Positions 1 to 37,044 of a stretch of 64,000 bases of DNA are shown piece after piece. Source of the DNA: an uncultured virus (IMG/VR IMGVR_UViG_2061766007_000671) (Duplodnaviria; Heunggongvirae; Uroviricota; Caudoviricetes); IMG/VR virus record IMGVR_UViG_2061766007_000671, one strand, 5' to 3'. The notes under the pieces were generated by a model. The model saw nothing but the letters and a program-made list of their open reading frames with translations, was not told the origin of the DNA and searched no databases. How positions within the stretch are numbered: position 1 is the first letter of the stretch; every line of letters starts with the position of its first letter. Position numbers and translations under genes: made by a program.

Positions 1-106
1 CATCAGCGTATTTATGAAGCTTACCTTCCGCGATTTCTTTTCGCAGGTCTTCACCGATTTCACAGTTGAAAATGCACGTCATTTCTGTATTCATCTCTAT
101 ACCTCC

Positions 107-523
107 TTATGACCAGAGCTTTCCATCAACGTACACCCAGTAGTCGCCGATGCTGTGCTGTCTCTCTGCGGCGTCCGCAGCCGCATCTACGTCGAACGCC
201 CACACCTCGTAGGTCGCGGTGAGCTGTACCTCATACTTCCTGGGCTTGGGGATGTCGGGCTTGAATCCGTGCTCGGTGGCGTACAGGTACAGGGTCTCGG
301 TCTCGTCGGCGGTGGACTCGTTGAAGAACCAGTCGTCGAAGTCCACGCTGTCGTCGAAGTGCTCGTTGTACCACTCCTCCACAATGGAGCGTGGGAAGTC
401 CACCTCCATCATGTTGTCCGGGGTGTCGAAGAACGGATCGTCCAAATCCATGCGGCTCGTGTACTCCGGCACACTGGTCTTGTAAATCGTTACGGTCAGC
501 ATCTCGTCTTTGCAGTTCTCCAT
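107..523 (-). CDS. acidic hypothetical early protein
   Basis: Start moved to ATG 523 behind a GGAGGTGG RBS; ATGA overlap with the upstream gene. Confidence 0.7.
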   Translation of the reverse strand: MENCKDEMLTVTIYKTSVPEYTSRMDLDDPFFDTPDNMMEVDFPRSIVEEWYNEHFDDSVDFDDWFFNESTADETETLYLYATEHGFKPDIPKPRKYEVQLTATYEVWAFDVDAAADAAERQHSIGDYWVYVDGKLWS

Positions 524-798
524 CAGCATTCCACCTCCACAATTTCTGCTGTGCTTTTCCAGTACTTTGTGTTCTCCGGGTTCTTGTACGACCAGTTGCG
601 CTTTGCGTCGCACAGACGGTCGTATCCGTGCAGACGGATTCCTCCCTCCCACAGAGGCATCTTGTTCCACACCGCGTGGTCTCCCTCAACGCCAAGCGTG
701 ATGCCTCCCTTGCCGTAGTAATATACACAGGTCTCTCCCGCAAAACTCTCGTTCTCCGGCGTTGCCACGCTCGTCAACTTCACAATATATTTTACCAA
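523..798 (-). CDS. hypothetical protein
   Basis: Probable TTG start after a GGAG-containing RBS; coupled to both neighbours. Confidence 0.55.
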   Translation of the reverse strand: MVKYIVKLTSVATPENESFAGETCVYYYGKGGITLGVEGDHAVWNKMPLWEGGIRLHGYDRLCDAKRNWSYKNPENTKYWKSTAEIVEVEC

Positions 799-1199
799 TC
801 GTCTCCCTCCTCCCAACGCTCCGGGGGCAGAAGCTCCTGCCCAAAAAGGTTGTACCACTGCCCGCATCCGGGGCACTCACATGCACCCATGTACTCGTTG
901 AACATGGGAAACTCTGCGCCGCATTCGCACAGACCGTAGGCGGGGTCTCTGTACGAATGTGTCTGCTTGATGACCTTGTTGAAGCGGACGTACTTCTCGG
1001 GGTGCGCCATAGCGGACTCCATGTTCCTTCGCCGTGCTTCGTCCACGGCATTGTGGTCAATGCTCGGGTGCTCCGGGGCGGGGAGAATGTTCCCGGCCTC
1101 GTCGCATGGGAAGCACAGCCCGTTGCCGCGCCCGTCATCAAAGACCAGTTCGTAGTAGGTTTCTTCCTTCCACTCGGACGGTGTGTAGCTCTTCAGCAT
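792..1199 (-). CDS. hypothetical protein with C-terminal Zn-ribbon-like CxC...CxxC
   Basis: GGAGG RBS; LCECG...CECPGCGQWYN motif. Confidence 0.7.
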   Translation of the reverse strand: MLKSYTPSEWKEETYYELVFDDGRGNGLCFPCDEAGNILPAPEHPSIDHNAVDEARRRNMESAMAHPEKYVRFNKVIKQTHSYRDPAYGLCECGAEFPMFNEYMGACECPGCGQWYNLFGQELLPPERWEEGDDW

Positions 1200-1217
1200 G
1201 TTTGTGCAGACCTCCTA

Positions 1218-1598
1218 TCAGATATCGAACACGGACAGATTCCATGAGTTTCCAAGCTCCGAATACACGCCGTGCTTATGGAGAAGCTCGTGGAATTCGT
1301 CCTCAACCTTGTACCCGTACCGCCCAAGGTAACCGTTCATTACATCGTAGAACGTACCCTCAAAGGTCATGGTCAAATACGGGCCGACATAGTCGCAGAC
1401 ACGATGTGGATCTACGTCGTGCAGTTCCACAAGGTGCTCCGGGTCGTTGTAGTAGTAATGTCCCTGTCCGTCCGAAGTGCTGTAGGCCATGCCGTTGAAG
1501 TAGATGGTCACGTCCACCCACATCTCATGGTCGAGCAGGAACTGTCGGATTTCCTTGGCAAGCTTACGAATCTGGGGCTTGGTCAGTTTCTTAGGCAT
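1218..1598 (-). CDS. hypothetical protein
   Basis: GAGGAGG RBS; overlaps stop of upstream gene. Confidence 0.7.
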   Translation of the reverse strand: MPKKLTKPQIRKLAKEIRQFLLDHEMWVDVTIYFNGMAYSTSDGQGHYYYNDPEHLVELHDVDPHRVCDYVGPYLTMTFEGTFYDVMNGYLGRYGYKVEDEFHELLHKHGVYSELGNSWNLSVFDI

Positions 1599-1971
1599 CT
1601 TCATCGTCCTCCTCATCGTCGAATTCCCATTCCTTTGGGTAGTAGCCGCTGAGACTCTCTGCATTCACAGCGTCGGAGTACCAAGACTGGAAGTCAGAGC
1701 ACATGATGGCGTCGGCCATCTCGTCGGCATCGTTGAACTCCTCGACGAGTCCGGGGTATTCTCCCAGGCAGTAAATAGCCCGCGCATGGACAGCGTCGAT
1801 ATAGATTTGAAGCTCGTACTCAAAGCCGGGGTCGCCGTACTCTTCCACCTCTTCAGCGCGGACGGTGGTATACAGGAGCGGAATTCTTTTGGGATTCTCA
1901 AAGTCGCCCATGACTCCGTACTCCTTCATGCAGAAGTGGTCGATAGCGTCGCGCAGTTTCGGGTTTACCAT
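1591..1971 (-). CDS. acidic hypothetical protein, first gene after promoter copy 1
   Basis: AAAGGAG RBS directly downstream of the conserved motif. Confidence 0.7.
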   Translation of the reverse strand: MVNPKLRDAIDHFCMKEYGVMGDFENPKRIPLLYTTVRAEEVEEYGDPGFEYELQIYIDAVHARAIYCLGEYPGLVEEFNDADEMADAIMCSDFQSWYSDAVNAESLSGYYPKEWEFDDEEDDEDA

Positions 1972-1990
1972 TTGCACATCTCCTTTCACT

Positions 1991-2021
1991 CCATAGGGAA
2001 CGGCGCGTCAAAAATCGGACA
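1991..2021 (-). promoter_or_regulatory. bipartite phage promoter motif copy 1 (TGTCCGA-N14-TTCCCTATGG)
   Basis: Identical boxes and identical 14-nt spacer in 5 intergenic sites. Confidence 0.8.
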
Positions 2022-2049
2022 GCGCAATGATTACATTTTGATTACAGTT

Positions 2050-2355
2050 TTACAGGTCGTCCCGTGTGACGTACTCGTATGCCCACTTGAGGCAGTCTCG
2101 CTCGTCATCCATGGTCACAATTTCGTCCAGATACTTGCGGTAGCGATGCGCCACACGGCTGCGCAAATCCTCATCATCGCGCAGGGCCTTGAGCATTCCC
2201 ATCGGCTCGTTGTCGTCGTCCCACATGTACTCAAGAAGCTCAAGCACATAGTTCATATCCCACTTGTGCTCCTGCTCCCAGTATGCCTCGGATGCCTCTT
2301 GCGAGGTCAGCTCAAACTCGCGGATGATGCCGTCCACTTCTCTGCGAATCTTCAT
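2050..2355 (-). CDS. acidic hypothetical protein
   Basis: GGAGG RBS; operon position. Confidence 0.65.
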   Translation of the reverse strand: MKIRREVDGIIREFELTSQEASEAYWEQEHKWDMNYVLELLEYMWDDDNEPMGMLKALRDDEDLRSRVAHRYRKYLDEIVTMDDERDCLKWAYEYVTRDDL

Positions 2356-2356
2356 A

Positions 2357-2536
2357 TCAGCACACCTCCAAAGTGTTTCCCGCGCCGTCACAGAGGCGCA
2401 TCATGCCACTCAGCTCTACGTCAATATTGAATTTTGCCATGAACCACTCCAGTTCCGAAACCGCCTTGTCAAGGCTTTCCTGCCTCGTCCGAAAGACTAG
2501 GCGCACTCCATCACAGCGCAGTTCATTCACGGGCAT
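2357..2536 (-). CDS. hypothetical protein
   Basis: AAGGAGG RBS before MPVNELR. Confidence 0.55.
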   Translation of the reverse strand: MPVNELRCDGVRLVFRTRQESLDKAVSELEWFMAKFNIDVELSGMMRLCDGAGNTLEVC

Positions 2537-2993
2537 CTGACAGACCTCCTTCCAGATCTCGGTTGCGGTAGCAGTAGCAATACAGGTCATAGCATCCCAC
2601 TCGGGGCATCATCCGCATGATGAGGCTGTAGACGTTGTGAGTCTTGGGGTAGCTGTCCGGGAACACATCCATGCGGAAGAAGTGGTTTTCTCCCTCACAG
2701 GCATCCGGGAATTCTGCGCAGTACTTTCGCATGGCGGAGCGGTTGTGCAGAGGATTGATTTCCCCGTCCTTGCGCCGCAGGATATTGATTGCCTCGTCGA
2801 AAGCGTCCTTGAATTCCTGGGTCTTCAGCTCCGGGTGATTGTGCTCCCACCACGTCGTCCAGAAATCGTTCCCGCCTCGACCGAAGTCTGCCCGGAGATG
2901 GCCGATGCATTTGCAGATTTCATCACCCTCATCGCAGGTGTAGGCGAACTTGCGCTGTTCCTTGGGAGCGGGGAAAAAAGCCCAACTGTACAT
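2523..2993 (-). CDS. hypothetical protein resembling a domain common in clostridial mobile elements
   Basis: CIGHLRADFG...FWTTW...LKTQEFK...YDLYCYCY pattern recognised from memory; RBS present. Confidence 0.6.
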   Translation of the reverse strand: MYSWAFFPAPKEQRKFAYTCDEGDEICKCIGHLRADFGRGGNDFWTTWWEHNHPELKTQEFKDAFDEAINILRRKDGEINPLHNRSAMRKYCAEFPDACEGENHFFRMDVFPDSYPKTHNVYSLIMRMMPRVGCYDLYCYCYRNRDLEGGLSDARE

Positions 2994-3005
2994 GTGCATT
3001 CCTCC

Positions 3006-3323
3006 TTAATCAAGATAGGGGAAGTAGTCCCACTCGCCAAACACGGCGACCTCCGGGTAGCTCCCGGCGGGAGACTCCTGCCACCGCTGTTTCTTCTCCG
3101 ACCAACGGAAAGTCTTGCGCTTCCCGGCAGGGTCATCCTCAATGTAGTCCGGGAGGGTATCGTAGTACCGCGCGCCAAGGAAGACCGGGCGCGCCGCGCG
3201 CACGGTCACGACGTTCCCCTTAACGGCCTCCACCGTGTAGGGGTTTCGGACAGCCTGCACATAGTACATATTGCAGGGCGTATATGTGTAGAGTTTCTCT
3301 CCAACCACAGGCAGATGTTTCAT
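3006..3323 (-). CDS. hypothetical protein
   Basis: AAGGAGG RBS. Confidence 0.7.
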   Translation of the reverse strand: MKHLPVVGEKLYTYTPCNMYYVQAVRNPYTVEAVKGNVVTVRAARPVFLGARYYDTLPDYIEDDPAGKRKTFRWSEKKQRWQESPAGSYPEVAVFGEWDYFPYLD

Positions 3324-3335
3324 GCAGATCCCTCC

Positions 3336-3707
3336 TTAATCTGTGTAGATTTCGATGTCGATGGTGTCGAACGCCTGTACCAGAGCCGCCACTATATCCT
3401 TGAGGTAGCGGCACTTTGTCTTACTCAGTCGGAACTTGGTGAGCCGCTGATAGGGTCTGTTGTGGATGTTCTCCGTGTATCCCTGCTTCTTGTTGAGGCC
3501 AAGGCAGTTCTTCATGTGGTCTTTTCCCGCCCAGAAGCTGAACATGTTCCACATGTCCTTGCCGTCCTCCTGCCATGTTGAGAGCATGATGAGGTAGGCG
3601 TTCCCCGTGTACAGGTCAAGCTTGTACTCCGCTTCCGTACCGTCCTCCTGCGTCTGTACGAGCGTGGCCTCGCCACATTTTTCAGACCATTCCCAGTGAA
3701 GTGCCAT
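3336..3707 (-). CDS. hypothetical protein
   Basis: AAGGAG RBS. Confidence 0.7.
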   Translation of the reverse strand: MALHWEWSEKCGEATLVQTQEDGTEAEYKLDLYTGNAYLIMLSTWQEDGKDMWNMFSFWAGKDHMKNCLGLNKKQGYTENIHNRPYQRLTKFRLSKTKCRYLKDIVAALVQAFDTIDIEIYTD

Positions 3708-3720
3708 GTGCATTCTCCTT

Positions 3721-3915
3721 TCACATCACGCCGCCAAGCGACGTGGTAATCCACACCAGTTTGTTGTCACTCTTCTGCACGAAGTACTCGTTTCCGACCT
3801 CGTCCGTGTACCACCGAAGCCCGAAGTCTTTTTCGTAGCTCCCCTCTGGCATCCGCTTCAGCTTTCCAACGACCTCCCAATCGAACACGGTCTTTGCCTG
3901 TTCGCGCACTGTCAT
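3721..3915 (-). CDS. hypothetical protein, first gene after promoter copy 2
   Basis: AAAGGAGG RBS; start MTVREQAK. Confidence 0.65.
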   Translation of the reverse strand: MTVREQAKTVFDWEVVGKLKRMPEGSYEKDFGLRWYTDEVGNEYFVQKSDNKLVWITTSLGGVM

Positions 3916-3934
3916 GAGTTTCCCTCCTTTCACC

Positions 3935-3965
3935 CCATAGGGAACGACGGCGGCGGATTCGGACA
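3935..3965 (-). promoter_or_regulatory. bipartite phage promoter motif copy 2
   Basis: CCATAGGGAA 3935-3944 and TCGGACA 3959-3965 on + strand. Confidence 0.8.
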
Positions 3966-4014
3966 CTTGACCGCCGATTTTTATATTTTTGTTGAATTTG
4001 CACAAAAACATGGG

Positions 4015-4044
4015 AAAAGACCGCGCGGGCGGTCGGTCTTTTTT
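4015..4044. terminator. hairpin flanked by A and T tracts, possible bidirectional terminator
   Basis: AAAAGACCG...CGGTCTTTT. Confidence 0.5.
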
Positions 4045-4395
4045 GTCTAATATGACATGCCGCGCGGAGGCCTCCGGGCGGCCATACCTATATAATATTG
4101 TACATATTGACGGAAAAACGACCGCCGCGCCGAAAACAGTCTATCTAATATCGCGTATTAGATGATTATTCATCGTTTATGCAAAAGCAAAAGCTAACTA
4201 TGAATATTTTATGCATATATGCGGCGGATTATGTGCAAATATGCGAGAAAATGAATAAAACAGAGTCCAATAAACGGGACTTTGTTTCCTTGTCAAGGTA
4301 GAAAAAAATTATGCAAAAACGCCGTATATTGTATGAATATCGGCGTATAAATGCATGATATATTGAATAAACAGCGTAAAATATTCAATAGCATG

Positions 4396-4424
4396 CTGTC
4401 AGAAAATGGGCGATATGATATCAT
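4396..4424 (+). promoter_or_regulatory. sigma-A-type promoter candidate (CTGTCA-17-TATCAT, extended TG)
   Basis: 17-nt spacing; precedes AGGAGG RBS and ATG 4463. Confidence 0.5.
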
Positions 4425-4462
4425 ACCCGTAGGAAATGAAAAAAAAACAGGAGGAATTAGCA

Positions 4463-4490
4463 ATGACTAACCGAATTGAGGCCACCCGCG
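4463..4490 (+). CDS. N-terminal fragment (MTNRIEATR) cut by an assembly gap; probable start of the 9790-11001 ORF
   Basis: AGGAGG RBS; ends in GAG GCC ACC CGC codons typical of the GC-rich ORF. Confidence 0.55.
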
Positions 4491-4500
4491 NNNNNNNNNN

Positions 4501-4572
4501 ACCAATTTCCTCAAGCTTGAACTCCATGCTGTCAAGCTGATAGGAAAGCTGTTCGCGCACTTCCTCCGCCAT
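4501..4572 (-). CDS. N-terminal fragment of a hypothetical protein truncated by the gap
   Basis: GGAGG RBS then MAEEVREQLSY... Confidence 0.5.
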
Positions 4573-4585
4573 GTTTTACACCTCC

Positions 4586-4849
4586 TCAGACCACACGGAT
4601 GTATATGGGATGCGTCTCCCAACTCTTCTTCGTGAGCACACAGCCCCGGGAGTACAGGATATATTCGATAGCATCCTGTAGCTCTCCAAAGTCAGATCCA
4701 TAGATGTTGGACGCGCTCTCCGGGTCTTCCTCTTTTTCCGGGTTCTCGATGGTTATGCCGCGCTTCTCAAGGAAGTCCTCAAAGGCCTCGATAATGGCGG
4801 TCTCGGTCTCCAGTAGCTGACGGTTGTCGTTCTCGGTGATGACTATCAT
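4586..4849 (-). CDS. acidic hypothetical protein
   Basis: AAGGAGG RBS. Confidence 0.7.
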   Translation of the reverse strand: MIVITENDNRQLLETETAIIEAFEDFLEKRGITIENPEKEEDPESASNIYGSDFGELQDAIEYILYSRGCVLTKKSWETHPIYIRVV

Positions 4850-4861
4850 GTGCGCACCTCC

Positions 4862-5233
4862 TTAAAATTCGCACCACGAGCGACCGTGGCGCACAGCATT
4901 CTCTGGGAGCAGGCGAGGATAATATAAAGGCGTCCGATTTTCAAGGTAGTAGCACCACTTTCCTGCTCCCTTGCAGTCGTGCTTACTTCCCGGCGGGATG
5001 TGCGTGATGTGTCTGATAGTGTCCAGATACTCTGCGGGCAGAAACATCTTGCCCATGATGAACGCATGCCCAACGATTGTGGGGTACTCCCCACGATGTG
5101 TGCGGATGATGGCGACGCGCTTATGCACACAGTTCTTGAGCATGTCCCTGCTTCTCGTCTCGATGAATTTGTTCCCATTCACGATAGCGTCAGCGTAATC
5201 CACCTCGTCGCAGTTCACGAAGATACCTATCAT
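4862..5233 (-). CDS. ASCH/PUA-like domain protein
   Basis: YADAIVNGNKFIETRS matches the ASCH GxKxxExR motif. Confidence 0.75.
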   Translation of the reverse strand: MIGIFVNCDEVDYADAIVNGNKFIETRSRDMLKNCVHKRVAIIRTHRGEYPTIVGHAFIMGKMFLPAEYLDTIRHITHIPPGSKHDCKGAGKWCYYLENRTPLYYPRLLPENAVRHGRSWCEF

Positions 5234-5245
5234 CGCCGCGCCTCC

Positions 5246-5569
5246 TCAAATGAAGTCGGAGACACTCATGCCCGGAGCGTCCCACGGATTTGCAGAGCTG
5301 TAGTCTCCCCCGGTGACAGAGCGGATGTAATCGCGCTCCCACGGGTCTACATACTCTTCCCAGTCATCCCCATACGGGTCTTCCTCTACTTCCTCGACCT
5401 CTCCCAAGCGATTGGAAAAGACGTTCTTGCACCCGCATTCGCGCAGGTCGCGAACACGATTGTTCAGTTCTTCAGACGTTCCGACGAACATCTCGTGGCA
5501 GTTCTCCTCATCCGGGAAGAACCCAAAGTTATCGTGCCAGTCGTAGATGATCTCAAACTCGAACCGCAT
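5246..5569 (-). CDS. acidic hypothetical protein
   Basis: GGAGG RBS; C-terminal NPWDAPGMSVSDFI. Confidence 0.7.
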   Translation of the reverse strand: MRFEFEIIYDWHDNFGFFPDEENCHEMFVGTSEELNNRVRDLRECGCKNVFSNRLGEVEEVEEDPYGDDWEEYVDPWERDYIRSVTGGDYSSANPWDAPGMSVSDFI

Positions 5570-5712
5570 CAGATAGCCGCCTCCCCTACTGTTTTTGTGC
5601 CGCTCTTCACGTCGTAGATGATGCGCAGGCCTGTGAACTTGTTTTCAAACTCGATGACTCCCGGCGCGACCTCGCGCAGGAATGCAAATCCAGACCGATA
5701 GAGTATATCCAT
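5569..5712 (-). CDS. 47-aa hypothetical protein (below ORF-track cutoff)
   Basis: GAGGAGG RBS; MDILYRSGFAFLREV...; TGATG coupling. Confidence 0.6.
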   Translation of the reverse strand: MDILYRSGFAFLREVAPGVIEFENKFTGLRIIYDVKSGTKTVGEAAI

Positions 5713-5716
5713 GCTG

Positions 5717-6007
5717 TCAAGCCTCCTCTTTGCTGACCACGCCGTCGCAGTACAGGCCGCCGCTCTTCTTTGCAGACTTCATGACGGAGAGGAACGTCTC
5801 CATCAGCTCGGCGAAGTTCTTGTCGTCATCGACGTACCATGCGGCCTCGTCGTCTTCCACATTCTCGGCGACAGACAGGTCGCCGTACTCGATATCGCCG
5901 TCGCCGACCCCCAGAATGAGCCAGTGCTCGAAGACCGACTCGTCATTGACCTGCCGCGCGATGTACTCCATCGCCTTGACCATCTTCACGCGCTCGATTT
6001 TGTTCAT
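5717..6007 (-). CDS. acidic hypothetical protein
   Basis: GGAGG RBS before MNKIERV. Confidence 0.7.
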   Translation of the reverse strand: MNKIERVKMVKAMEYIARQVNDESVFEHWLILGVGDGDIEYGDLSVAENVEDDEAAWYVDDDKNFAELMETFLSVMKSAKKSGGLYCDGVVSKEEA

Positions 6008-6009
6008 GT

Positions 6010-6369
6010 TCAGCCCTCCCCATTCCCGGACAGGCATTTGCAGACCTTGTCCATGTTGAAACGGTACTCCGGGTAGACACACCACCCGCTGAATCCGTGC
6101 ATCCCGGTCGGCTCGGCGAGGCCGTTGGCCTCAAGAAACTCGGGCAGGAACGGCGCATTATTCACGTCCACGAATGCGCAGTCCTCCCCGGACAGCGGCT
6201 CGTCGGGCAGGTTGACGGTGATGTCGCAGTAGGGCGACATGAATCCGAAATCCGGGTCGAGCGTCATCAGCCCCAGATACATGCGGTTCTGCCGCTTGAA
6301 GCAGTAGGTGTCTTTGGTCAGCTCGGCGCACTCAATCTCGCCAGTCCACGGGTTCACAAAGTTCAGCAT
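6010..6369 (-). CDS. DUF4313-like protein
   Basis: PYCDITVNL...AFVDVNN...FLEANGLAEPTG...SGWCVYPEYRF pattern. Confidence 0.7.
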   Translation of the reverse strand: MLNFVNPWTGEIECAELTKDTYCFKRQNRMYLGLMTLDPDFGFMSPYCDITVNLPDEPLSGEDCAFVDVNNAPFLPEFLEANGLAEPTGMHGFSGWCVYPEYRFNMDKVCKCLSGNGEG

Positions 6370-6371
6370 AT

Positions 6372-6659
6372 TCAAACCTCCTCAAAAGTTTTGTCCAGTT
6401 CTTCAGCGACGGCCTCACACCATGCCATCGCGTCACTCACTACGTCCTCGTAGGAATCCCGGAACGGATACCCTGCATTCAGCGCGTTGTCCATGCCCTC
6501 GTACAGCTTATCCTCGTAGTAGTGGTTCTGCACCTCGTCCCAGAGATACTCAAGGGCAAGCATGCTTTTGCAGATTTCGTCGAGCAATTCGTTTGCCCGT
6601 GTGGCAAGCTTGAGCACCTCTGCCCTGTGGTTTTTGCTGATGTCGATTTCTACCATCAT
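6372..6659 (-). CDS. acidic hypothetical protein, first gene after promoter copy 3
   Basis: GAGGAGG RBS. Confidence 0.7.
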   Translation of the reverse strand: MMVEIDISKNHRAEVLKLATRANELLDEICKSMLALEYLWDEVQNHYYEDKLYEGMDNALNAGYPFRDSYEDVVSDAMAWCEAVAEELDKTFEEV

Positions 6660-6676
6660 GTGAGCCTCCTCTCGCT

Positions 6677-6707
6677 CCATAGGGAACGGCAGGGCCAAAT
6701 TCGGACA
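6677..6707 (-). promoter_or_regulatory. bipartite phage promoter motif copy 3
   Basis: CCATAGGGAA 6677-6686 and TCGGACA 6701-6707. Confidence 0.8.
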
Positions 6708-6737
6708 CTCTGCCGTTCGTCATTTTGCACAAACTTT

Positions 6738-7358
6738 TCAGTCGTCCATCCAGTATGTCCACCGGGTCAGCTTGGACAGGCCGTACCGTTTCAGATACGC
6801 GCGGCATTTCTTCAGATGGGAGGCCGCGACACGTTCGTATGCATCTCGGAGCAAAGCCACGTCCTCATCGGTGCAGACGTATCCCTTACGCCACCCGTCA
6901 AAGAGAAGCTCCTGCCCCTTCAGAGCAGGGAGGAATGCCACGCCGCCGACAGCTTCCAGAACGTCGGTCACGCGCATGAAGTTAATGCCCCGGAGCTGTC
7001 GCGTGTTACCGCACAGCACCACCATGCGCGTCAGTCCGTGTTCGCTCAGATTCTGGAGCACGTTTGCGTACTCCTTCATGTTCTCGCGCAGGAAATGCGC
7101 CTCGTTCTTCCCGGCCTCGTAGCATTCCCGGCTTGCCTCCTCATACGTCGGGCCAAAGCCCAAGTCACTGTACCCGAAGCAGAAGCGGGTCTGCACCCTC
7201 TGCTTGTCGATTCCTACCAACAGCCCGTTGGACAGCTTCACCACCTCGGCGGCCTGCTTCACGCAGTAGTCCGCCAAGTCCTCACCATACCCGTCCTCGA
7301 TGTGGGCCGCGCGGTACTCTTCCATGAGCGCCGCATCTTTACAGTTCTTCTTAGGCAT
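6738..7358 (-). CDS. hypothetical protein
   Basis: AAAGGAG RBS; 206 aa ending YLKRYGLSKLTRWTYWMDD. Confidence 0.75.
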   Translation of the reverse strand: MPKKNCKDAALMEEYRAAHIEDGYGEDLADYCVKQAAEVVKLSNGLLVGIDKQRVQTRFCFGYSDLGFGPTYEEASRECYEAGKNEAHFLRENMKEYANVLQNLSEHGLTRMVVLCGNTRQLRGINFMRVTDVLEAVGGVAFLPALKGQELLFDGWRKGYVCTDEDVALLRDAYERVAASHLKKCRAYLKRYGLSKLTRWTYWMDD

Positions 7359-7373
7359 GTCTGTGCTCCTTTC

Positions 7374-7802
7374 TCAGCCCATCGTAAAGGCCAAATCCCG
7401 CAGGATGTCCTTACCGATGCTCATATCCTTGTTCTCGCTCGTGTACTTGGTGTCCGGGCGCAGGTAGATTCCCTCCTCCCCCTTTTCCGTGCAGATGTCG
7501 TCGATGTCGTAGGTGTACCACCTATTGAAGCTTTCGGTCTTCCAGTCGTTCTCCCGGTCGATGACGTGCTCGGTCACCTCCATCGTGAACGACGGCGCAT
7601 CAAAGGTCTTCTCGGCCTCGCGCTTGGCGTTGACCGCCTTTGCCCAGATTTTCCGCATGCCGTCGATGAAGTCGGCAAGATCTCCAATGCTCGCGCCCGC
7701 GCTCAGTTCTACCTCGGCAGTGTACTTGCTCGTGTGCTCCTCCCCCTTGACGCGCCGGGAGAGGGTCATCTCACAGCTGATTTTCTTGAAACGGTTTTCC
7801 AT
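7374..7802 (-). CDS. hypothetical protein
   Basis: AAGGAG RBS. Confidence 0.7.
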   Translation of the reverse strand: MENRFKKISCEMTLSRRVKGEEHTSKYTAEVELSAGASIGDLADFIDGMRKIWAKAVNAKREAEKTFDAPSFTMEVTEHVIDRENDWKTESFNRWYTYDIDDICTEKGEEGIYLRPDTKYTSENKDMSIGKDILRDLAFTMG

Positions 7803-7820
7803 AGTTGTGCAGGTCTCCTT

Positions 7821-8036
7821 TCACTTGCGAGGCACATCGGTCTCAGTGTTGTACGGCATGCTGACGAACGTGGGGCGAATCGTGTCCCACGCGCCTTGGT
7901 AGGAGCGGCCCGGAATCTTGTCCCAGATGGGTGTCGCCGTCTTGCAGTTCTTCAGAACCTGTCCGGCCTTTTCATGCCCGCGCATGAGCTTGGACATCTC
8001 GGCCTGTGCCAGTTTGCGGTAGCGTTTTGCTGTCAT
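7821..8036 (-). CDS. basic hypothetical protein
   Basis: GAGGAG RBS. Confidence 0.6.
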   Translation of the reverse strand: MTAKRYRKLAQAEMSKLMRGHEKAGQVLKNCKTATPIWDKIPGRSYQGAWDTIRPTFVSMPYNTETDVPRK

Positions 8037-8064
8037 GGTAGATGCTCCTCTGTTATATAGATTT

Positions 8065-8180
8065 CGCGGGCGGGCAGTTCCGTTGCGCGGGGGCTTGTCG
8101 TGCGGTAAACCATTCCCGCGCCTTTATCACATCCGCACCAGTGCGCACGGTTGACTCAAAGCCCCTGCCCGAAACCCGCG
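8065..8180 (-). ncRNA. compact structured RNA candidate with a pseudoknot, in the long leader after promoter copy 4
   Basis: Five nested Watson-Crick helices plus a 6-bp crossing helix (see findings); strand inferred from the promoter. Confidence 0.5.
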
Positions 8181-8351
8181 CACCAACGCCCGCGCAAATG
8201 TCGGGCGCTCGTGTGCAGATTTCCCGGCGGGATGTCGGCGTGTCCAGACCGNNNNNNNNNNNNNNNNNNNGTCCGTTGTCGTTCCTGTCTCCCCGTCCCA
8301 AGAGGAATCACATGCCGGGTTTTCCTCGCCTCCTTTGTGCAGGTCTTCACC

Positions 8352-8382
8352 CCATAGGGAACGGGAGCGTCAAATTCGGACA
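8352..8382 (-). promoter_or_regulatory. bipartite phage promoter motif copy 4
   Basis: CCATAGGGAA 8352-8361 and TCGGACA 8376-8382. Confidence 0.8.
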
Positions 8383-8412
8383 CCTCCCTCGGTTACAAAT
8401 GTTTACAGTTTT

Positions 8413-8571
8413 TCACGCCATCGCGACGATGCCCCACTCCTCTCCCGGATACAGGCGGCGGGCCTCGCTCAGATTGACTTGCGCCGTCAGCATGTCGCGC
8501 GTCGCGCGTCCGAACATATACGGCTTGCCAATGACGCGCACATAATAGGTCATGTTCTTGCAGAGCTTCAT
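8413..8571 (-). CDS. 52-aa hypothetical protein
   Basis: AAGGAG RBS; MKLCKNMTYYVRVIG... Confidence 0.55.
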   Translation of the reverse strand: MKLCKNMTYYVRVIGKPYMFGRATRDMLTAQVNLSEARRLYPGEEWGIVAMA

Positions 8572-8585
8572 ACAGTTCTCCTTCC

Positions 8586-8723
8586 TCAGAGTCGGTTGCG
8601 GTCAATCCAGTCGGCCCGCCGCAGGACGTTCCGCCATTCGATTGTGCCAATTTCCATCGTGCAGGACAGCGACTGCAAGTGATTTCTGTACCACCTCCAG
8701 TCCGTTTTGCTCCAGTTCTTCAT
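8586..8723 (-). CDS. 45-aa Trp-rich hypothetical protein
   Basis: GAGGAGG RBS right after promoter copy 5; MKNWSKTDWRWY... Confidence 0.6.
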   Translation of the reverse strand: MKNWSKTDWRWYRNHLQSLSCTMEIGTIEWRNVLRRADWIDRNRL

Positions 8724-8742
8724 GCTGTGGCCTCCTCTCACC

Positions 8743-8773
8743 CCATAGGGAATAAAATCGGAAAATTCGGACA
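8743..8773 (-). promoter_or_regulatory. bipartite phage promoter motif copy 5
   Basis: CCATAGGGAA 8743-8752 and TCGGACA 8767-8773. Confidence 0.8.
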
Positions 8774-8859
8774 GTAAATCTGTAACAAATGTTTACAGAT
8801 TTTGGGATGATACCCATCAAAGCCGCCCACGCGCACGTCGGCGGCTTTAGTTGATACCA

Positions 8860-8994
8860 TCACGCGAGGGACAGGATGTTGTCCCCGTAGATGCCGCGCA
8901 GGGTGCGCATGGCGGCCTTGCGGGTGCGTCCCCATTCTGTGCGCGGGAACACCTCCCCGTTTTTAAGATGAACCATGATTGTGTGGATTTTCAT
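8860..8994 (-). CDS. 44-aa basic hypothetical protein
   Basis: GAGGAGG RBS; MKIHTIMVHLKNGEVF... Confidence 0.55.
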   Translation of the reverse strand: MKIHTIMVHLKNGEVFPRTEWGRTRKAAMRTLRGIYGDNILSLA

Positions 8995-9053
8995 ATGATG
9001 ACCTCCTCATAAGATTGCAGGCGCGACGTTCCGCGCCGCGCCTGTGCAGATTT

Positions 9054-9734
9054 TCAGTGCTCTTTGCAATAGACGGTCTCGCCTGCTACGCAACCTCTGT
9101 GCAGATTTTTACACACGTCGCAGTTGCCCGGGCAGTAAAACCCGGCGGGCGGAGTCTCGTCTTTGAACACGACCCGGAACTCGGGCATGCCGTGCGGGTT
9201 TTCCATTGGCATGCCGCGCCACTCGGAAAACATCACGGTGAAGTTTTCCGGGAGCGCGCCGTGCTCGTCAATCCATGTGTTCACGATGCCGTACATTTTT
9301 GTGTACGTCCAGAACACAAAATCGGGATGCGCCCGCGCGATTTTTACCATGCGGTCGAAATAGTCGCCGTCGATGATGTCGCCCGCGACGTGCCAGCGGA
9401 AAAACTTGTTTTTCCGCCGCCGGGATATCGCGTCATCAATCCGGGCAAAAAACCCGTCGCGATCTTTTCGCAGGACGGTAAAGTTTCGCATGCGCGCGTC
9501 GATTACCGTGCCCGGATACTGGGCGCATGCTTTGATGTCGTAGCAAATTTTCATGCATTCTTTGCAATTGCCGCACGACATCACGGGCATATGCGAGACG
9601 TTCATCACGCGCCCGATTTTACGATTGCCTCCGCTGATGCAAAGCGGGATGTCTCGCGCGTCGAGCCTTTCAAGCTCCGCGCCGCGCTCGCGCGCTTTTT
9701 TCATCACGCGCCGCAGTGTTTCGATTGAGTACAT
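9054..9734 (-). CDS. GP88-family (radical-SAM-like, Cys-rich) protein
   Basis: GNRKIG, SCGNCKECMKICY, FRWHVAGDI, FWTYTK and CPGNCDVC motifs; start MYSIETL after GGAGG. Confidence 0.7.
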   Translation of the reverse strand: MYSIETLRRVMKKARERGAELERLDARDIPLCISGGNRKIGRVMNVSHMPVMSCGNCKECMKICYDIKACAQYPGTVIDARMRNFTVLRKDRDGFFARIDDAISRRRKNKFFRWHVAGDIIDGDYFDRMVKIARAHPDFVFWTYTKMYGIVNTWIDEHGALPENFTVMFSEWRGMPMENPHGMPEFRVVFKDETPPAGFYCPGNCDVCKNLHRGCVAGETVYCKEH

Positions 9735-9789
9735 TCGATTGCCTCCAATCAATCTGTTTTCCTCGCCCGGAGCAGGCCNNNNNNNNNNC

Positions 9790-11001
9790 TCCGCGCTCCG
9801 CGCGTCCGACCTCGATGGCCTCCGCGCCATCCGCCCGGAGGCCGTCGCCGACCTCGTCGCCGCCGCCGTCTCCCGCGCCATCGACCGCCGCGAGGCGGAG
9901 ACCGGGCGCGACGGTCGCGCCCTCCGCGCCCGGTACGCCTCGACCCGGGTCACGCTGTCCGAGACCATGAACGCCGACGCCATCGGCGAGGCCTGCGCCG
10001 TCCTGCTCGAGATGATGACCCCGGGCGGATGGATTGACGGCGAGGCCGTCGCGATGACCGACCGGGAGACGGGCGACCCCGTCGCCGTCGCCCGCCGAGA
10101 CCTCCCGCTTGCCTACGTCGCCGCCATCGCCGCCGGGCGCGGCCTCGACCGTGTGATGTACGCCGACGGCGGACACGCCGTCAAGATGACCGCCCGGGAG
10201 GCTCGGGAGAGCTACGACCGCGCCGCCCGGGAGGCCGTCAAGACCCGCGCCCGCCTCGAGGCCGCCGGGGAGGAAGTCCCGGAGCAGGTCGCCCGCCTCG
10301 CCGAGATGGCGGAGGCCGCCGAGGTCGCCGACCTCCTCGCCGCCGAGGCCGCCGCCCGCCCGGATGACCGGGAGGCCGCCCGCCTCGCTCGCGTCGCCCG
10401 CTCCGAGTATCTCGCCTCCTCCGCCGCCGTCGCCGCCCGGATGACTCCGAGCGAGACCCGCCGCACGGTTGACCCGGTCGCGCCCTCCCCGGAGGCCGCC
10501 GCCATCTCGGCGGAGACCGTCGCCGCCATCCTCTCGGAGGTCTCGCCCGCCTACGTCTCCGCCGCCGTCGCCATCGCCCGAGAGGTATACCGGGGAGCGA
10601 CGACCGCCGACGGCCTCGCGAATGTCGCCGAGGCCGCCCGCCTCGCGGGAATCCCGGAGCGGAAAGCTCGCCGGGCATGGGAGGCCGTCAAGGCCGCCGC
10701 CGCCATCGCCCGAGAGGAAGACCGCGCCGAGGCCGTCGAGATGGCGAGGAAGACCCGCGCCGACGGTCGCCGCGCCGCCGTCCGCCTCCACCGGGAGAGC
10801 GTCGCCGCCGCCGCCGAGGCCGCCCGCCTCGCCGGGATGGAGCTTGACCGGGAGGCCTCCCCGGAGGCCGTCGCGATGTGGGGAGAGGTCGCCCGGAGGA
10901 CTCGCCCGGAGCGCCTCGCCGCCGTCGCCCGGATGACTCCCGCCGACCTCGCCGCCCTCCGCGACCTCGCCCGCGCCGTCTTCCTCGCCGCCGCCGAGTA
11001 A
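9790..11001 (+). CDS. GC-rich Ala/Arg/Glu-rich protein, candidate divergent sigma-70/ECF-like factor (5' end lost in gap)
   Basis: 403 open codons with strong GCC/GAG/CGC/GTC/CTC bias; region-2-like DAIGEACAVLLEM, linker PSPEAAAISAETVAAILSEVSP, HTH-like VAEAARLAGIPERKARRAW. Confidence 0.55.
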   Translation, partial: SALRASDLDGLRAIRPEAVADLVAAAVSRAIDRREAETGRDGRALRARYASTRVTLSETMNADAIGEACAVLLEMMTPGGWIDGEAVAMTDRETGDPVAVARRDLPLAYVAAIAAGRGLDRVMYADGGHAVKMTAREARESYDRAAREAVKTRARLEAAGEEVPEQVARLAEMAEAAEVADLLAAEAAARPDDREAARLARVARSEYLASSAAVAARMTPSETRRTVDPVAPSPEAAAISAETVAAILSEVSPAYVSAAVAIAREVYRGATTADGLANVAEAARLAGIPERKARRAWEAVKAAAAIAREEDRAEAVEMARKTRADGRRAAVRLHRESVAAAAEAARLAGMELDREASPEAVAMWGEVARRTRPERLAAVARMTPADLAALRDLARAVFLAAAE

Positions 11002-11021
11002 ATCCCGCCGCTGTCCTATAA

Positions 11022-11045
11022 AAGGCCCTCCCGCCGGAGGGCCTT
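11022..11045 (+). terminator. GC-rich hairpin after the GC-rich ORF
   Basis: AAGGCCCTCC-CGCC-GGAGGGCCTT; weak U tract. Confidence 0.5.
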
Positions 11046-11475
11046 CCCCATGCCCTATATATGACTATATACTCATATGAGAATACCTATATATGAGTAT
11101 CTATTTATATGTATATATAATAATATGTCATTATATTCATATGACCATGTCCGCATATAATGGTATGAGAGCATGCTATTGATTGAGCGCGTCCTTTTTA
11201 GCACTCGCTCCCGGAGATTGCCAGTCTATACGATACCATGCTATTAATTGCATGCTATCAATAGCTTGCTTTCGGTATGCCCGCCGGGAGGCCCGCCGCC
11301 CGAGCCGTCATTACATGTATAAAGACGGCTCGAGGCGGTCACCTCCCCCCAGTTTCGGAATCGAATGTACATATGATCATGTGTTCTCCCCGGCGGCACT
11401 TCCCAAATCACAACTATTTCAAAAAATGATCTATAGGGTTGGTGGTGGCGGAATAGGGAAAAATTGGTGAAGTGC

Positions 11476-11505
11476 TTGACAAGTATAGGTGGTGCATGGT
11501 ATTAT
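11476..11505 (+). promoter_or_regulatory. sigma-A promoter for the ncRNA locus
   Basis: TTGACA-18-TATTAT with extended TG. Confidence 0.65.
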
Positions 11506-11668
11506 GCCCCGCCAATAAGGGATGTGCTGGGACGCATCATTGGTGGAATCTCCTTTCTGAACAGGGTATAGCCCCTGGTGGTTTATCGGCATGGGCTGCC
11601 GGGGGCGGTACTCATAACAGGTAGGGGTAAAAAAAATTTGCGCGGTCGCTTCGCGACATAGAGTATAA

Positions 11669-11740
11669 GCCGGAGTAGCATAGGGGGAAGTGCGCCGCTC
11701 TTTTAATGCGGATACGCGGGTTCGATTCCCGTCTCTGGTT
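11669..11740 (+). tRNA. tRNA-Lys(TTT), atypical, no encoded CCA
   Basis: Cloverleaf GCCGGAG/CTCTGGT, GCAT/GTGC, CCGCT-CTTTTAA-TGCGG, GCGGG-TTCGATT-CCCGT. Confidence 0.75.
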
Positions 11741-11771
11741 GATCCTGCGCAGGGATTATGTGGGCGAGTCG

Positions 11772-33779: not shown

Positions 33780-35015
33780 ATGAAGCTTTCGATGAACAGC
33801 ATCAACCCCAGCGTGTTTAAGGTCTCCGCCAACGAGACTGCCGACAACACAAAGGCCCGCGCCGATATCGTCGGCACCGGCCGTATGCTGGCTTACGAAT
33901 ACGCCCGCAAGGGCGCTTCCGCTGTCCGCTCCGCGATGGGCCAGAAGGACAACGAGATCGCTTCCGTCCTGTCCGCTGACAAGTACAAGGAAGCCAACGA
34001 CAAGTTCCAGCGGGCTCACCTGCTGTACGCCGCCCGTCAGGCCGATGCCGTTCTCGGCAAGGTCGGCCCCAAGGACTTTGACGAGTTCAAGCGCCGTGGC
34101 GCTGAGTACGTCAACAACAGCGTCTTCATGAAGGTGCTCATGGGCATCTATCAGGAGATCCTGACCCCCATCCTGCCCCTGGTCTACTCCGAGGCTGTCA
34201 GCGTGTTCGCGGATGTGGTCGAGGTCGGCTTCGGCGAGACCTACGAACTGACCATTTCCAGCAACGACATCCCCGTGTTCCAGGACAGCGCCTGGGGTGC
34301 CAGCCGGAGCGTTCCCCGTAACCGCTTCTACGAGAAGCAGTTCACCCTGAATCCGTCTCCGCGCACCTGCCAGATCAATGCCAAGTGGACGCAGCTCGTC
34401 GGCAACAACGTGGACTTCGGCAAGTACTTTGCCAACCTGTCCGCCGGTATGTATGCCAAGACGATGGGTATGTGGAACGCCGTGATGTCCGCCGCCATCG
34501 TGGACACCTCTCTGGTTCCCTCCAATCTGAGCGTCACTTTCGACACCCAGAACTGGGTCAAACTGGCCAACCGTCTGTCCGCCGTGAACAGCACTCCGAT
34601 CAGCAACATCTTCGCTTTCGGCTCCTACCCCGCTCTGGCGCAGGTTCTGCCCCAGGACGTGACCGGCAGCACGAACGTGAACATGGATGCCGCCATCGCG
34701 ACTCTGCTCGGCGCTGACTACACCCGCGCCGGTTATCTGGGCGAGTACATGGGCATCATGCTTCGGCCTCTGGTCGATGTCATCATCCCCGGCACCCAGA
34801 ACACCACCGTGGACACCATGCTGTCCGACTCCACCATCTACATGATGAGTGGCAACGGTCGCAAGCCCCTGACCATCGGCTACAACCGTGATACACCCAT
34901 CACGCTGGAAGTCGATCCTTCCAAGGCGGGCGACATGGAGATCGCTGTGAACATGACCATCGCCCTCGACGCGATTGCCGTGTTCTCCGACCACATCGGC
35001 GTCGTCAGCATCTGA
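33780..35015 (+). CDS. major capsid protein
   Basis: 411 aa; position; strong codon bias; followed by a hairpin. Confidence 0.8.
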   Translation: MKLSMNSINPSVFKVSANETADNTKARADIVGTGRMLAYEYARKGASAVRSAMGQKDNEIASVLSADKYKEANDKFQRAHLLYAARQADAVLGKVGPKDFDEFKRRGAEYVNNSVFMKVLMGIYQEILTPILPLVYSEAVSVFADVVEVGFGETYELTISSNDIPVFQDSAWGASRSVPRNRFYEKQFTLNPSPRTCQINAKWTQLVGNNVDFGKYFANLSAGMYAKTMGMWNAVMSAAIVDTSLVPSNLSVTFDTQNWVKLANRLSAVNSTPISNIFAFGSYPALAQVLPQDVTGSTNVNMDAAIATLLGADYTRAGYLGEYMGIMLRPLVDVIIPGTQNTTVDTMLSDSTIYMMSGNGRKPLTIGYNRDTPITLEVDPSKAGDMEIAVNMTIALDAIAVFSDHIGVVSI

Positions 35016-35057: not shown

Positions 35058-35132
35058 GCTGTCGTAGCACAATGGCAGTGCAGCCGCCTTGTAAGCGGCA
35101 GGTTGGGGGTTCGACTCCCTCTGACAGCTCCA
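35058..35132 (+). tRNA. tRNA-Thr(TGT)
   Basis: Full cloverleaf, loop CTTGTAA, CCA end. Confidence 0.9.
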
Positions 35133-36970: not shown

Positions 36971-37044
36971 ACCGATCTGGTGTAATGGCAGCACACGGGA
37001 CTTTGACTCTTGCGGTGGTGGTTCGAGTCCAGCGGTCGGTGCCA
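36971..37044 (+). tRNA. tRNA-Gln(TTG)
   Basis: Cloverleaf ACCGATC/GGTCGGT, loop CTTTGAC, CCA; G-G mismatch in T stem. Confidence 0.85.

Follow-up and report, generated by a model that had tools for sequence, protein, structure and literature searches.

The window analyzed here is a 64,000-nucleotide stretch of DNA from an uncultured virus of the Caudoviricetes (IMG/VR record IMGVR_UViG_2061766007_000671), and the element in question is an open reading frame (ORF) of extreme guanine-plus-cytosine (GC) content at positions 9790 to 11001, hereafter the island. The left arm of the window, from position 1 to about 11,100, is depleted of a set of short, restriction-type words, and the island is its last gene; a separate depletion, of hexamer palindromes, spans the whole phage. 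Both depletions and the boundary at which the first one ends are real, with very little room for doubt. Our interpretation is that the arm, at least 11 kb long and closed by the island, is under extra selection against these words and is exposed first, a statement that we give an even chance of being right as a whole; its component that the arm enters the cell first or is expressed first is tentative and somewhat short of even. The initial annotation of this DNA had proposed that selection acts directly on the DNA of an early or leading segment at 9790 to 11350; selection acting on DNA within one region stands, but its unit is the entire arm, from 1 to about 11,100, rather than that interval.

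Short words are depleted in the left arm

The arm and the island comprise the following features:

1..9778, minus strand: left arm with about 20 small ORFs (107 to 9740); the arm starts before the window
6010..6375, minus strand: DUF4313 gene (Pfam)
9054..9740, minus strand: GP88-family gene (Pfam)
9779..9788, strandless: run of 10 N, a genuine gap in the scaffold, in which about 90 codons at the 5′ end of the island gene are lost together with the divergent promoter region
9790..11001, plus strand: island ORF, 403 codons plus stop, the 3′ part (about 1.2 kb) of a putative sigma-70/extracytoplasmic function (ECF)-like protein gene

We scanned 1331 words for differences between the left and right sides of a boundary set at 11,100. 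Observed counts, each against its expectation, were as follows:

CCTGA: left 0 against 23.2, right 113 against 107
GCAGC: left 2 against 31, right 105 against 123.5
CCAGC: left 1 against 30.9, right 92 against 123.4
GATC: left 8 against 40.7, right 192 against 201.4
AGCCA: left 2 against 23.3
CTGGC: left 6 against 31
ACCGGC: left 0 against 8.8, right 62 against 32.8
CCAGG: left 3 against 31

Binomial P values for CCTGA, GCAGC, CCAGC, and GATC range from 2e-8 to 2e-10 (1331 words tested), and each arm word is missing in both orientations. Several of the arm words resemble what we take to be Type II restriction sites. GATC is depleted 4- to 5-fold within positions 1 to 12,000 and is at expectation beyond. 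Counted in 1-kb bins, the arm word set has 22 sites up to 11,000, where about 205 would be expected (about 9-fold depletion), and stands at about 1.0 of expectation thereafter. After the arm-word site at 9461, none occurs until 11220. The end of the depletion falls in the interval from 11001 to 11220, no more than about 220 bp from the island stop codon. This boundary falls inside single contigs of two runs, and therefore it is not a product of scaffolding.

A held-out test gave the same picture for the island itself. Words chosen solely from a comparison of 1 to 9778 with 12001 to 64000 were AGCCA, CCAGC, CCTGA, CGATC, GATCA, GATCC, and GCAGC (0 to 4 of each in the arm against 17 to 24 expected, with the right side at about 1.0 of expectation). 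The island contains 0 of these words against 9.4±2.8 under a synonymous permutation that keeps the protein and its codon counts (minimum, 2 in 1000 permutations). Among left arms of the purged lineage, the window's is the one examined. For comparison we used five further loci, namely, two IMG/VR records (L001 and L002), two metagenome loci (L003 and L004), and a 72-kb contig that represents a complete relative (G004:C2). The contrast recurs in L001, where the orthologue of the island gene holds 1 held-out word against 7.9 expected (P 0.005) and the right side holds 129 against 141.7. Site avoidance does not account for the extreme GC content and residue composition of the island, as other genes of the arm are purged at ordinary GC content.

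Several of the left-arm ORFs are acidic. Their matches in Pfam and PHROGs were limited to DUF4313, GP88, and three PHROGs without an assigned function. These small ORFs would be candidate counter-defense genes if the arm is a leading region.

Palindromes are avoided throughout the phage and its relatives

Of the 64 hexamer palindromes, 24 are missing outside the island (62.8 kb) and 30 have no more than one site there; palindrome sites total 341, where 982 would be expected. Some palindromes remain frequent (AAGCTT, 31; TGCGCA, 29; GATATC, 22). Some shorter or degenerate words are also far below expectation, including CTAG (2 against 242), GGWCC (13 against 148), CTWAG (10 against 113), and GGSCC (41 against 170). 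The island follows the same pattern: it has 2 sites of the 30 avoided hexamers, both CTCGAG, against 16.6±3.1 under synonymous permutation (minimum, 7 in 2000), and 0 GGNCC against 12.3, while the palindromes that are not avoided occur about as often as expected (11 against 12.0).

Relatives of the phage share this avoidance. Observed and expected counts of the 30-word set in the flanks are 5 and 76 for L001, 8 and 75.5 for L002, 2 and 17.7 for L003, and 3 and 32.8 for L004; in the orthologous genes themselves they are 2 and 11.7, 1 and 8.4, 5 and 16.8, and 1 and 8.4, respectively. GGNCC is avoided throughout the window but in only some of the orthologous genes. The purge of about 30 hexamer palindromes and CTAG is common to the whole phage and its relatives. 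The island had been singled out as a special unit of purging, a view that does not survive the comparison, given that the strongest purge is genome wide and the island is no more purged than the rest. Because it obeys the genome-wide avoidance as much as the rest of the phage does, the island gene appears to have resided in the phage lineage for a long time.

Composition and word use of the island

Within a 64-kb window of about 53% GC, the island has a GC content of 0.772, with values of 0.80, 0.59, and 0.92 at first, second, and third codon positions (GC1, GC2, and GC3), which is the pattern of a coding frame. GC content is about 0.55 to the left of the N run and 0.8 to its right, and it is down to 0.23 within 100 nucleotides (nt) past the island stop codon. 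The protein is composed of A111 R54 E41 V33 L28 D23 G19 T18 S17 P15 M12 I10 Y7 K5 W3 N2 H2 C1 Q1 F1, so that glycine, alanine, arginine, and proline (G+A+R+P) make up 0.49 of its residues, and the leading codons are GCC (95), GAG (39), CGC (33), GTC (30), CTC (24), GAC (21), CGG (15), and ACC (11). Our recount matched the residue and codon counts of the initial annotation for 9790 to 11001 exactly, as it did the reported absence of GATC (0 counted, 3.2 expected); other word counts are AAC 1, GTT 1, CAG 1, and CTG 3.

Word use was evaluated under two null models, a codon shuffle and the synonymous permutation. The scarcity of AAC, GTT, AA, and TT in the ORF is explained by codon and residue use (P 0.23 to 0.84 under both nulls), whereas GATC (0 against 3.2), CAG (1 against 5.0), and CTG (3 against 7.0) are low under both (P 0.002 to 0.03). 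The earlier list of scarce words thus divides: GATC and CAG/CTG are scarce beyond chance, but AAC/GTT and AA/TT are accounted for by composition. The island has 484 distinct hexamers against 591.5±10 under synonymous permutation and 630±11 under codon shuffle; three ordinary genes of equal length have 903 to 964. GC content alone is insufficient, as had been suspected, since the depletion persists in observed-to-expected counts under nulls that preserve composition. We rejected the possibility that the scarcity of GATC and CAG/CTG is a by-product of the palindrome purge: 40 synonymous permutations forced to the observed load of avoided sites still contained GATC at 3.0 (none with 0), CAG at 5.0 (none with 1 or fewer), and CTG at 6.9, with 573±12 distinct hexamers. 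Hypothetical codings of the same protein give a sense of the constraint. Third positions balanced between C and G would yield 22.8 avoided hexamers plus 25.8 GGNCC, CCWGG, and CTAG sites, and C at every ending would yield 15 plus 6; the actual gene has 2 plus 0. A gene of 77% GC that is under both purges is left with a very small codon and k-mer vocabulary.

Codons preferred in the island are the commonest codons of the phage pushed further (GCC 0.86 against 0.42, GTC 0.91 against 0.33). Leucine is the exception, in that the island uses CTC where the likely capsid gene favors CTG, a choice that fits avoidance of CAG/CTG-containing words rather than translation.

The visible ORF is truncated. 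Homologues extend about 90 residues further toward the N terminus than the window protein, so the window gene has lost its 5′ end. Logan contigs (contigs rather than raw reads, compared over 8800 to 11900) of two runs end at 9778 and resume at 9789. Taken together with the extra residues of the homologues, these contig ends identify the N run as a true gap, which was probably caused by GCC-rich internal repeats. One Logan contig has 31 letters more upstream of 9789, preceded by a copy-like match of 10808 to 10834; by eye, and in the frame of the gene, those letters fit the conserved motif that precedes the window's first residues in the family. The contigs of L001 and L002 likewise start within the orthologous gene.

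Two further properties of the ORF were considered and set aside. A conserved antisense gene was rejected: the in-frame antisense strand has 0 stops, but in L002 there are 4 codons whose complements would read as stops, and the open antisense frame of the island exists because its codon set is self-complementary. Selection on mRNA folding was rejected because the two halves of the gene have z values of −2.3 and +1.6 against shuffles, which is no consistent signal.

Orthologues and gene-specific GC enrichment

The island gene is, with near certainty, a genuine gene resident in the phage. Its protein has 14 homologues at 38 to 76% identity (8000 candidates scored), and a profile search returned 26 cluster representatives at E of ≤1e-3, 12 of them at E of ≤1e-30. 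Orthologues occur in the same synteny in five other contigs, which are the comparison loci introduced above. L001 and L002 are collinear with the right side of the window, L001 at about 47 to 84% amino acid identity; the L001 orthologue itself is only 47% identical to the window gene. Genes of the window's left arm are also present in L004.

In all six contexts the GC content of the orthologue lies above that of its flanks, which are at about 50 to 55%. The orthologues form a graded series, from about 59% in L004 through about 61 to 63% in G004:C2, 69.5% in L003, and 72% in L002 to 77% in L001 and the window, and the G+A+R+P share ranges from 0.18 to 0.51 over 35 family proteins. The initial annotation had called for a search for the same island in related genomes, and the gene is indeed found at the same place in L001 to L004 and G004:C2, with raised GC throughout. 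At the 103 positions where the window and L004 proteins have the same residue, GC3 is 0.93 in the window and 0.63 in L004, and window codons that align to L004 and those in insertions both have 77% GC; the shift is therefore gene wide and operates at the nucleotide level. It ends with the ORF in three of the four loci that have downstream sequence, the exception being L001. Alanine-rich insertions alone as the source of the GC excess are ruled out by the equally high GC (77%) of the core codons, and a regional GC process extending beyond the ORF is ruled out by the drop in GC after the stop codon in the window, L002, and L003. The gene is under a gene-specific drive to GC-rich codons and residues, one clean case of directional evolution of a single gene.

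The L001 orthologue is followed by about 360 bp of GC- and purine-rich sequence (GGAGGGAGG-type; L001:1200-1560) that contains an open frame whose translation has abundant Gly, Glu, and Arg and that has no counterpart in the window.

Searches beyond these loci returned nothing new. A search of 185,579 species, each represented by one genome, gave 134 candidate stretches, none of which was a relative, and blastn of the island and of 5000 to 9770 against phage records gave no match. Further viral loci sought with A5, P0025, and P0009 added none, P0009 returning the same contig as L001. The nearest of the virus records compared, G001 (15 kb), lacks the island gene and both flanks. Loci bearing GP88 (L028 to L040) have no sigma-like gene and hence provide no second left arm. 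A literal-term search of open-access text gave no match to a GC-extreme phage gene of this kind.

The encoded protein is likely a divergent sigma-like factor

Structure models point to a divergent two-domain protein of the sigma-70/ECF type as the likely product of the island gene, and such a factor would probably redirect the host RNA polymerase. Two putative domains were placed on the island by mapping from the model of the compact L004 orthologue (predicted local distance difference test [pLDDT] score, 83.8):

9808..10185, plus strand: sigma-2-like helical domain, mapped from residues 15 to 115 of the L004 model
10486..10725, plus strand: sigma-4-like helix-turn-helix (HTH) domain, HTH core at about 10621 to 10713, mapped from the L004 model

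In Foldseek, 48 of the 50 rows listed for the L004 model carry sigma factor titles, the remaining two being integrative-model rows with other names, and the best row has an E value of 1.2e-3 and a probability of 0.98. VIA-align matched the sigma-2-like domain to the SigE N-terminal domain (Z 5.8), the Pribnow-box region of SigC (Z 5.7), and sigma-E region 2 (Z 5.5). The sigma-4-like domain (L004 residues 146 to 219) aligned with residues 132 to 200 of a sigma-H chain (Z 8.7, root mean square deviation 2.4, 69 aligned) and with SigD4 (Z 7.7), CnrH (Z 7.3), and sigma-E region 4 on DNA (Z 7.1), Z values that are middling for helical proteins; weak HTH sequence matches fall over the same domain. 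Full-length ECF chains aligned over 125 to 146 residues at Z 5.7 to 7.3. The model of a full-length homologue, P0002 (pLDDT 89.4), is nearly all helix and has an N-terminal helical hairpin of about 80 residues. Its Foldseek matches are mostly sigma factors, weakly (E of ≥0.17), and its VIA-align matches are led by the hairpin (ROP and F-BAR) and are uninformative.

Sequence models give partial matches. NCBIfam TIGR02937 matches 7 of 31 family members, none above the cutoff; the best match, to the remote member P0034, has an E value of 1.5e-10 and 40.9 bits (cutoff, 42.9) and covers profile positions 6 to 159 of 165, which include both domains. Pfam Sigma70_r4_2 matches 6 of 37 members (best E, 1.4e-4) and Sigma70_ECF 5 of 37, below the gathering threshold. 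Among 30 Atlas neighbors, 21 are in clusters without a common family, and several neighbor clusters are mostly viral with Sigma70_r4, r4_2, or r2 on part of their members. Several negatives count against the assignment: neither the window protein nor its close homologues are matched by Pfam, PHROGs, or NCBIfam models, no family member is assigned to a Pfam or PHROG family, and no Pfam or NCBIfam model scores above its cutoff for any member, so that sigma membership is drawn from weak scores.

The border and the contigs across it

The arm-limited depletion ends in a border region that lies immediately downstream of the island:

11022..11045, plus strand: perfect 10-bp hairpin, 21 nt past the stop codon, without a T run behind it
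11054..11264, strandless: AT-rich, repeat-rich noncoding border (23 to 44% GC) with direct and inverted repeats; the arm purge ends here
11054..11165: five overlapping copies of a 32-nt repeat, spaced 32, 16, 16, and 16 nt apart, each with ATATG
11172..11264: three CATGCTATTGATTG-type copies, forming the following part of the border, alongside several inverted repeats
11476..11505, plus strand: strong sigma-70-type promoter-like site (TTGACA, 18-nt spacer, TATTAT, with TG; 11 of 12 positions), a consensus match only, upstream of the tRNA gene
11668..11741, plus strand: tRNA-Lys(UUU), the first gene past the purged arm

For the repeat array at 11054 to 11264, possible roles are an origin, a binding array, and a signal for injection or packaging. 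In L003, too, the orthologue is followed by a stretch of 36% GC. Relative to expectation, the flank at 11002 to 11350 is depleted of AA (11 against 21.0), TT (18 against 28.4), AAC (0 against 5.6), and GTT (0 against 5.7) and has an excess of AT (50 against 24.7) and TA (42 against 24.6). Word scarcity in the AT-rich flank to about 11350, reported initially as part of the island, is thus real, but its cause is different and lies in the TATATG-type repeat with its 16-nt spacing. Two other segments that had been called atypical are not so: 4050 to 4490 is merely AT rich (38% GC) next to another N run, and 9000 to 9778 is ordinary (56.5% GC) and corresponds to the minus-strand GP88-family gene.

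In the likely source sample, Logan contigs over the island have a depth of 21.9 to 24.3, about 2.4-fold that of 8800 to 9778 (9.2 to 9.75). Two smaller runs of this sample (X3 and X4) cover only 11172/11217 to 11772 well, at depths of 10 to 17.6, and their contigs join 11172 and 11217 leftward to sequence like the 3′ end of the window ORF at 13618 to 13974. These joins represent either another arrangement or a back-joint. Further N runs of 10 to 43 bases lie at 4491 to 4500, 8252 to 8270, 11906 to 11948, 47788 to 47817, and 50258 to 50290, and of all the N runs only 9779 to 9788 is shown as an assembly gap. One X1 contig seems to continue beyond 11900, over the N run at 11906 to 11948.

Explanations for the purged arm

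Three layers meet on the island DNA: the gene-specific GC drive, the genome-wide palindrome purge, and the arm-limited purge of GATC, GCAGC, CCAGC, CCTGA, AGCCA, CTGGC, and CCAGG, which ends at the border. The arm would be the DNA that host restriction enzymes can reach ahead of the countermeasures of the phage, the remaining genome would then be shielded by something that the arm encodes, and the sigma-like factor would serve as an early regulator. A purge that is limited to one arm and ends sharply at a repeat-rich border is what T5/BF23 and T7-like phages would predict, and this likeness favors a first-exposed arm. In its most extended form, which we regard as unlikely, temperate siphovirus-like phages of ruminant-gut Clostridia would deliver or expose their DNA in two stages, beginning with a purged arm of at least 11 kb that carries counter-defense genes and the early sigma-like factor; the GC-extreme gene and the AT-rich array would act as a stop or border, and the runaway GC content would itself be selected at the DNA level, either as part of the border or to present no targets.

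Several observations weigh against a first-exposed arm. No arm ORF matches a known anti-restriction family in Pfam or PHROGs. Depletion of the arm words is not seen in the L002, L003, and L004 genes or in the L004 arm, and the complete 72-kb relative G004:C2 has no left/right contrast in these words, which makes the arm purge lineage specific. The phage carries an integrase, unlike the lytic T5 and T7, and contig depth between 8800 and 11900, which is raised only for the island contig, lacks the uniform doubling that a T5-type terminal repeat over the whole arm would predict. The GC drive of the island gene is not accounted for by this reading.

The main rival, which we rate as somewhat unlikely, is a mosaic history, in which the arm and the sigma-like gene are a module from a host background with extra restriction enzymes that recombined at the repeat-rich border, so that the step in word content would record ancestry rather than entry order. 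Phage genomes are mosaics of exchanged modules, and the lack of an arm-specific purge in L002, L003, L004, and G004:C2 is compatible with such an origin, as is the roughly 2.4-fold depth of the island contig over its left neighbor. The X3 and X4 contigs show another arrangement at exactly 11172/11217, which makes the border a recombination junction in the population as well. On the other hand, L001 repeats the contrast between a purged gene and an unpurged right side even though its gene is 47% and its right side about 47 to 84% identical to those of the window; the contrast must then either have survived extensive divergence or have arisen twice. Both sides of the border also avoid the same set of about 30 hexamers, which indicates that both have long been under one host pressure, and no fully purged donor genome was seen. 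Import of the gene, once or repeatedly, from phages or bacteria of high-GC hosts, with too little time since to drift back, would account for 77% GC in a 53% GC window and for a G-, A-, R-, and P-rich protein (0.49) of the kind found in high-GC organisms. We consider it improbable, since all orthologues at 38 to 76% identity have raised GC content, grading from 59% to 77%, the residues in common with an orthologue of GC3 0.63 still have a GC3 of 0.93 in the window, the gene follows both site purges of the resident genome, and no relative turned up in the 185,579 species genomes (0 of 134 candidate stretches). Capsid relatives of the phage in species genomes fall in metagenome bins labeled Clostridia class at 12 of 15 loci, although binning of phage contigs is unreliable; these are not typical high-GC hosts, and the host is probably not a high-GC bacterium.

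The remaining alternatives concern the island alone. If K and Q were avoided for independence from the Lys and Gln tRNAs that anticodon nucleases target, the presence of only 5 K and 1 Q would follow, and the phage does carry tRNA genes for Lys(UUU), Gln(UUG), and Thr(UGU), with the Lys gene just downstream. We judge this very improbable: the depletion of N, F, I, Y, H, and C equals that of K and Q, though the phage has no tRNA for those six, which amounts to a general loss of AT-rich codons. In addition, the K share of K+R declines smoothly with G+A+R+P across the family, and the tRNA sets of relatives differ (Trp, Ser, Asn, and Arg in L003; Thr(CGU) and an odd one in L001). The tRNA alternative raised by the initial annotation consequently has no specific support, given the equal depletion of other residues with AT-rich codons and the variable tRNA sets. 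A purely compositional account, in which the scarcity of k-mers follows from 77% GC and an Ala/Arg/Glu-rich helical protein, explains AAC, GTT, AA, and TT fully and agrees with a protein predicted to be almost all helix; it is refuted, with hardly any probability left to it, by the avoided hexamers (2 against 16.6±3.1), the held-out words (0 against 9.4±2.8), and the distinct hexamers (484 against 592±10), each evaluated under a null that holds the protein and its codon counts fixed. A chimeric assembly, with a piece of a high-GC organism misscaffolded into the phage, could be suspected from the N run that lies precisely at the 5′ edge, where contigs break. Its probability is close to nil: the 3′ edge runs unbroken into phage DNA in single contigs of two runs, the same gene has the same neighbors in independent assemblies, and the island shares the phage's own avoided words. 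The initial annotation had named a chimera as the finding that would overturn its proposal; we looked for one, and the synteny in L001 to L004 and G004:C2 did not bear it out.

Comparison with known phage systems

To our knowledge, experimental demonstrations of region-limited restriction-site avoidance are confined to a few lytic model phages (T5 and its relatives, and T7-like phages). Passages of one report on T5/BF23 describe a first-step DNA with two inversely oriented pre-early units, a repeat-rich noncoding border, and tRNAs among the early genes, and phages that are insensitive to nucleases unless sites fall within the first-step DNA (PMC10644984). The T5/BF23 arm, in the same passages, measures about 8 to 10 kb, is terminal, and holds small genes of unknown function (PMC10644984). 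The window resembles this arrangement in its arm of at least 11 kb, its divergent units, its border at 11054 to 11264 with tRNA-Lys directly after it, and its arm-limited word avoidance; the repeat-rich border recalls the injection-stop site of T5, a likeness of layout only. Unlike the window phage with its integrase, T5 is lytic and has its arm in a terminal direct repeat of about 9.7 to 10 kb, and the contig depth over 8800 to 11900 is hard to reconcile with a repeat covering the arm in full. No resemblance in sequence to T5 genes was noticed, although none was looked for.

For T7-like phages, portions of another study report that motifs in the first-injected region decide sensitivity to Type I restriction and are harmless elsewhere, and that the leading region is variable and rich in anti-defense genes (PMC12455610). 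The window shows a comparable step-like, region-limited absence of short words. The T7-like cases differ in being podoviruses with one Type I motif and experimental evidence; in the window the words number at least seven, the phage is temperate and siphovirus-like, and the evidence is sequence. Restriction-site avoidance by phages in general is called widespread in part of a third source (PMC6286503). As in such general avoidance, the window loses particular palindromes and keeps others, but it goes further, in that 24 of 64 palindromes are absent, the set is common to diverged relatives, and a second layer is limited to one region.

Early phage sigma factors are exemplified by SPO1 gp28. The island protein is like phage factors of the sigma-70 family in its sigma-4-like domain, which a putative sigma-2-like domain would precede in the correct order, and in an early-looking position beside divergent promoters; it is unlike them in matching no curated model above the cutoff and in its large Ala/Arg/Glu-rich helical insertions and extreme GC content. 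For codon use, a parallel is offered by mycobacteriophage Patience (about 50% GC), for which sections of the published account state that the most expressed genes prefer GC-rich codons, with 15 of 16 C-ending codons preferred (PMC4324244). The island similarly pushes the phage's own commonest codons to an extreme, and the likely capsid gene comes next on the same axis. It differs from Patience in that the host is probably not high in GC, the residue composition is shifted as well (0.49 G+A+R+P), and leucine is encoded by CTC against CTG in the capsid gene.

Regional avoidance and phage sigma-like factors are already known kinds, to which the window adds a variant. If our reading of the step boundary in this uncultured, integrase-bearing gut phage is true, staged exposure of DNA and arm-encoded protection would be wider than the model phages. 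It would also open a computational route to leading arms and counter-defense genes in metagenomes, and the separation of arm-only from genome-wide words would split host restriction systems into those that the phage can neutralize and those that it cannot. The gene extends the known range of phage sigma-like factors.

Other genes of the phage

The window encodes an integrase, a YqaJ exonuclease, RecT, SSB, a DnaB helicase, a dUTPase, a tape-measure protein, and a GH25 endolysin with a CW_7 repeat, and it has three tRNA genes. Features outside the arm and border include the following:

33780..35015, plus strand: likely major capsid gene, with the second-strongest bias to C-ending codons (four-fold sites: C 0.58, A 0.01)
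35058..35132: tRNA-Thr(UGU)
36971..37044: tRNA-Gln(UUG)

The capsid family has 933 homologues at E of ≤1e-20, on contigs mostly of 66 to 89 kb, and is far larger than the island family with its 26 representatives. In two relatives, tRNA genes lie just downstream of the sigma-like gene, and the sets vary: L001 (2033 to 2376) has one with an odd anticodon loop and a Thr-CGU, and L003 (2006 to 2781) has Trp, Ser, Asn, and Arg. Finally, the minus-strand block that follows the lysis genes includes a class-V aminotransferase (cysteine-desulfurase-like) gene (59161 to 60258, minus strand), which is a possible auxiliary metabolic gene.

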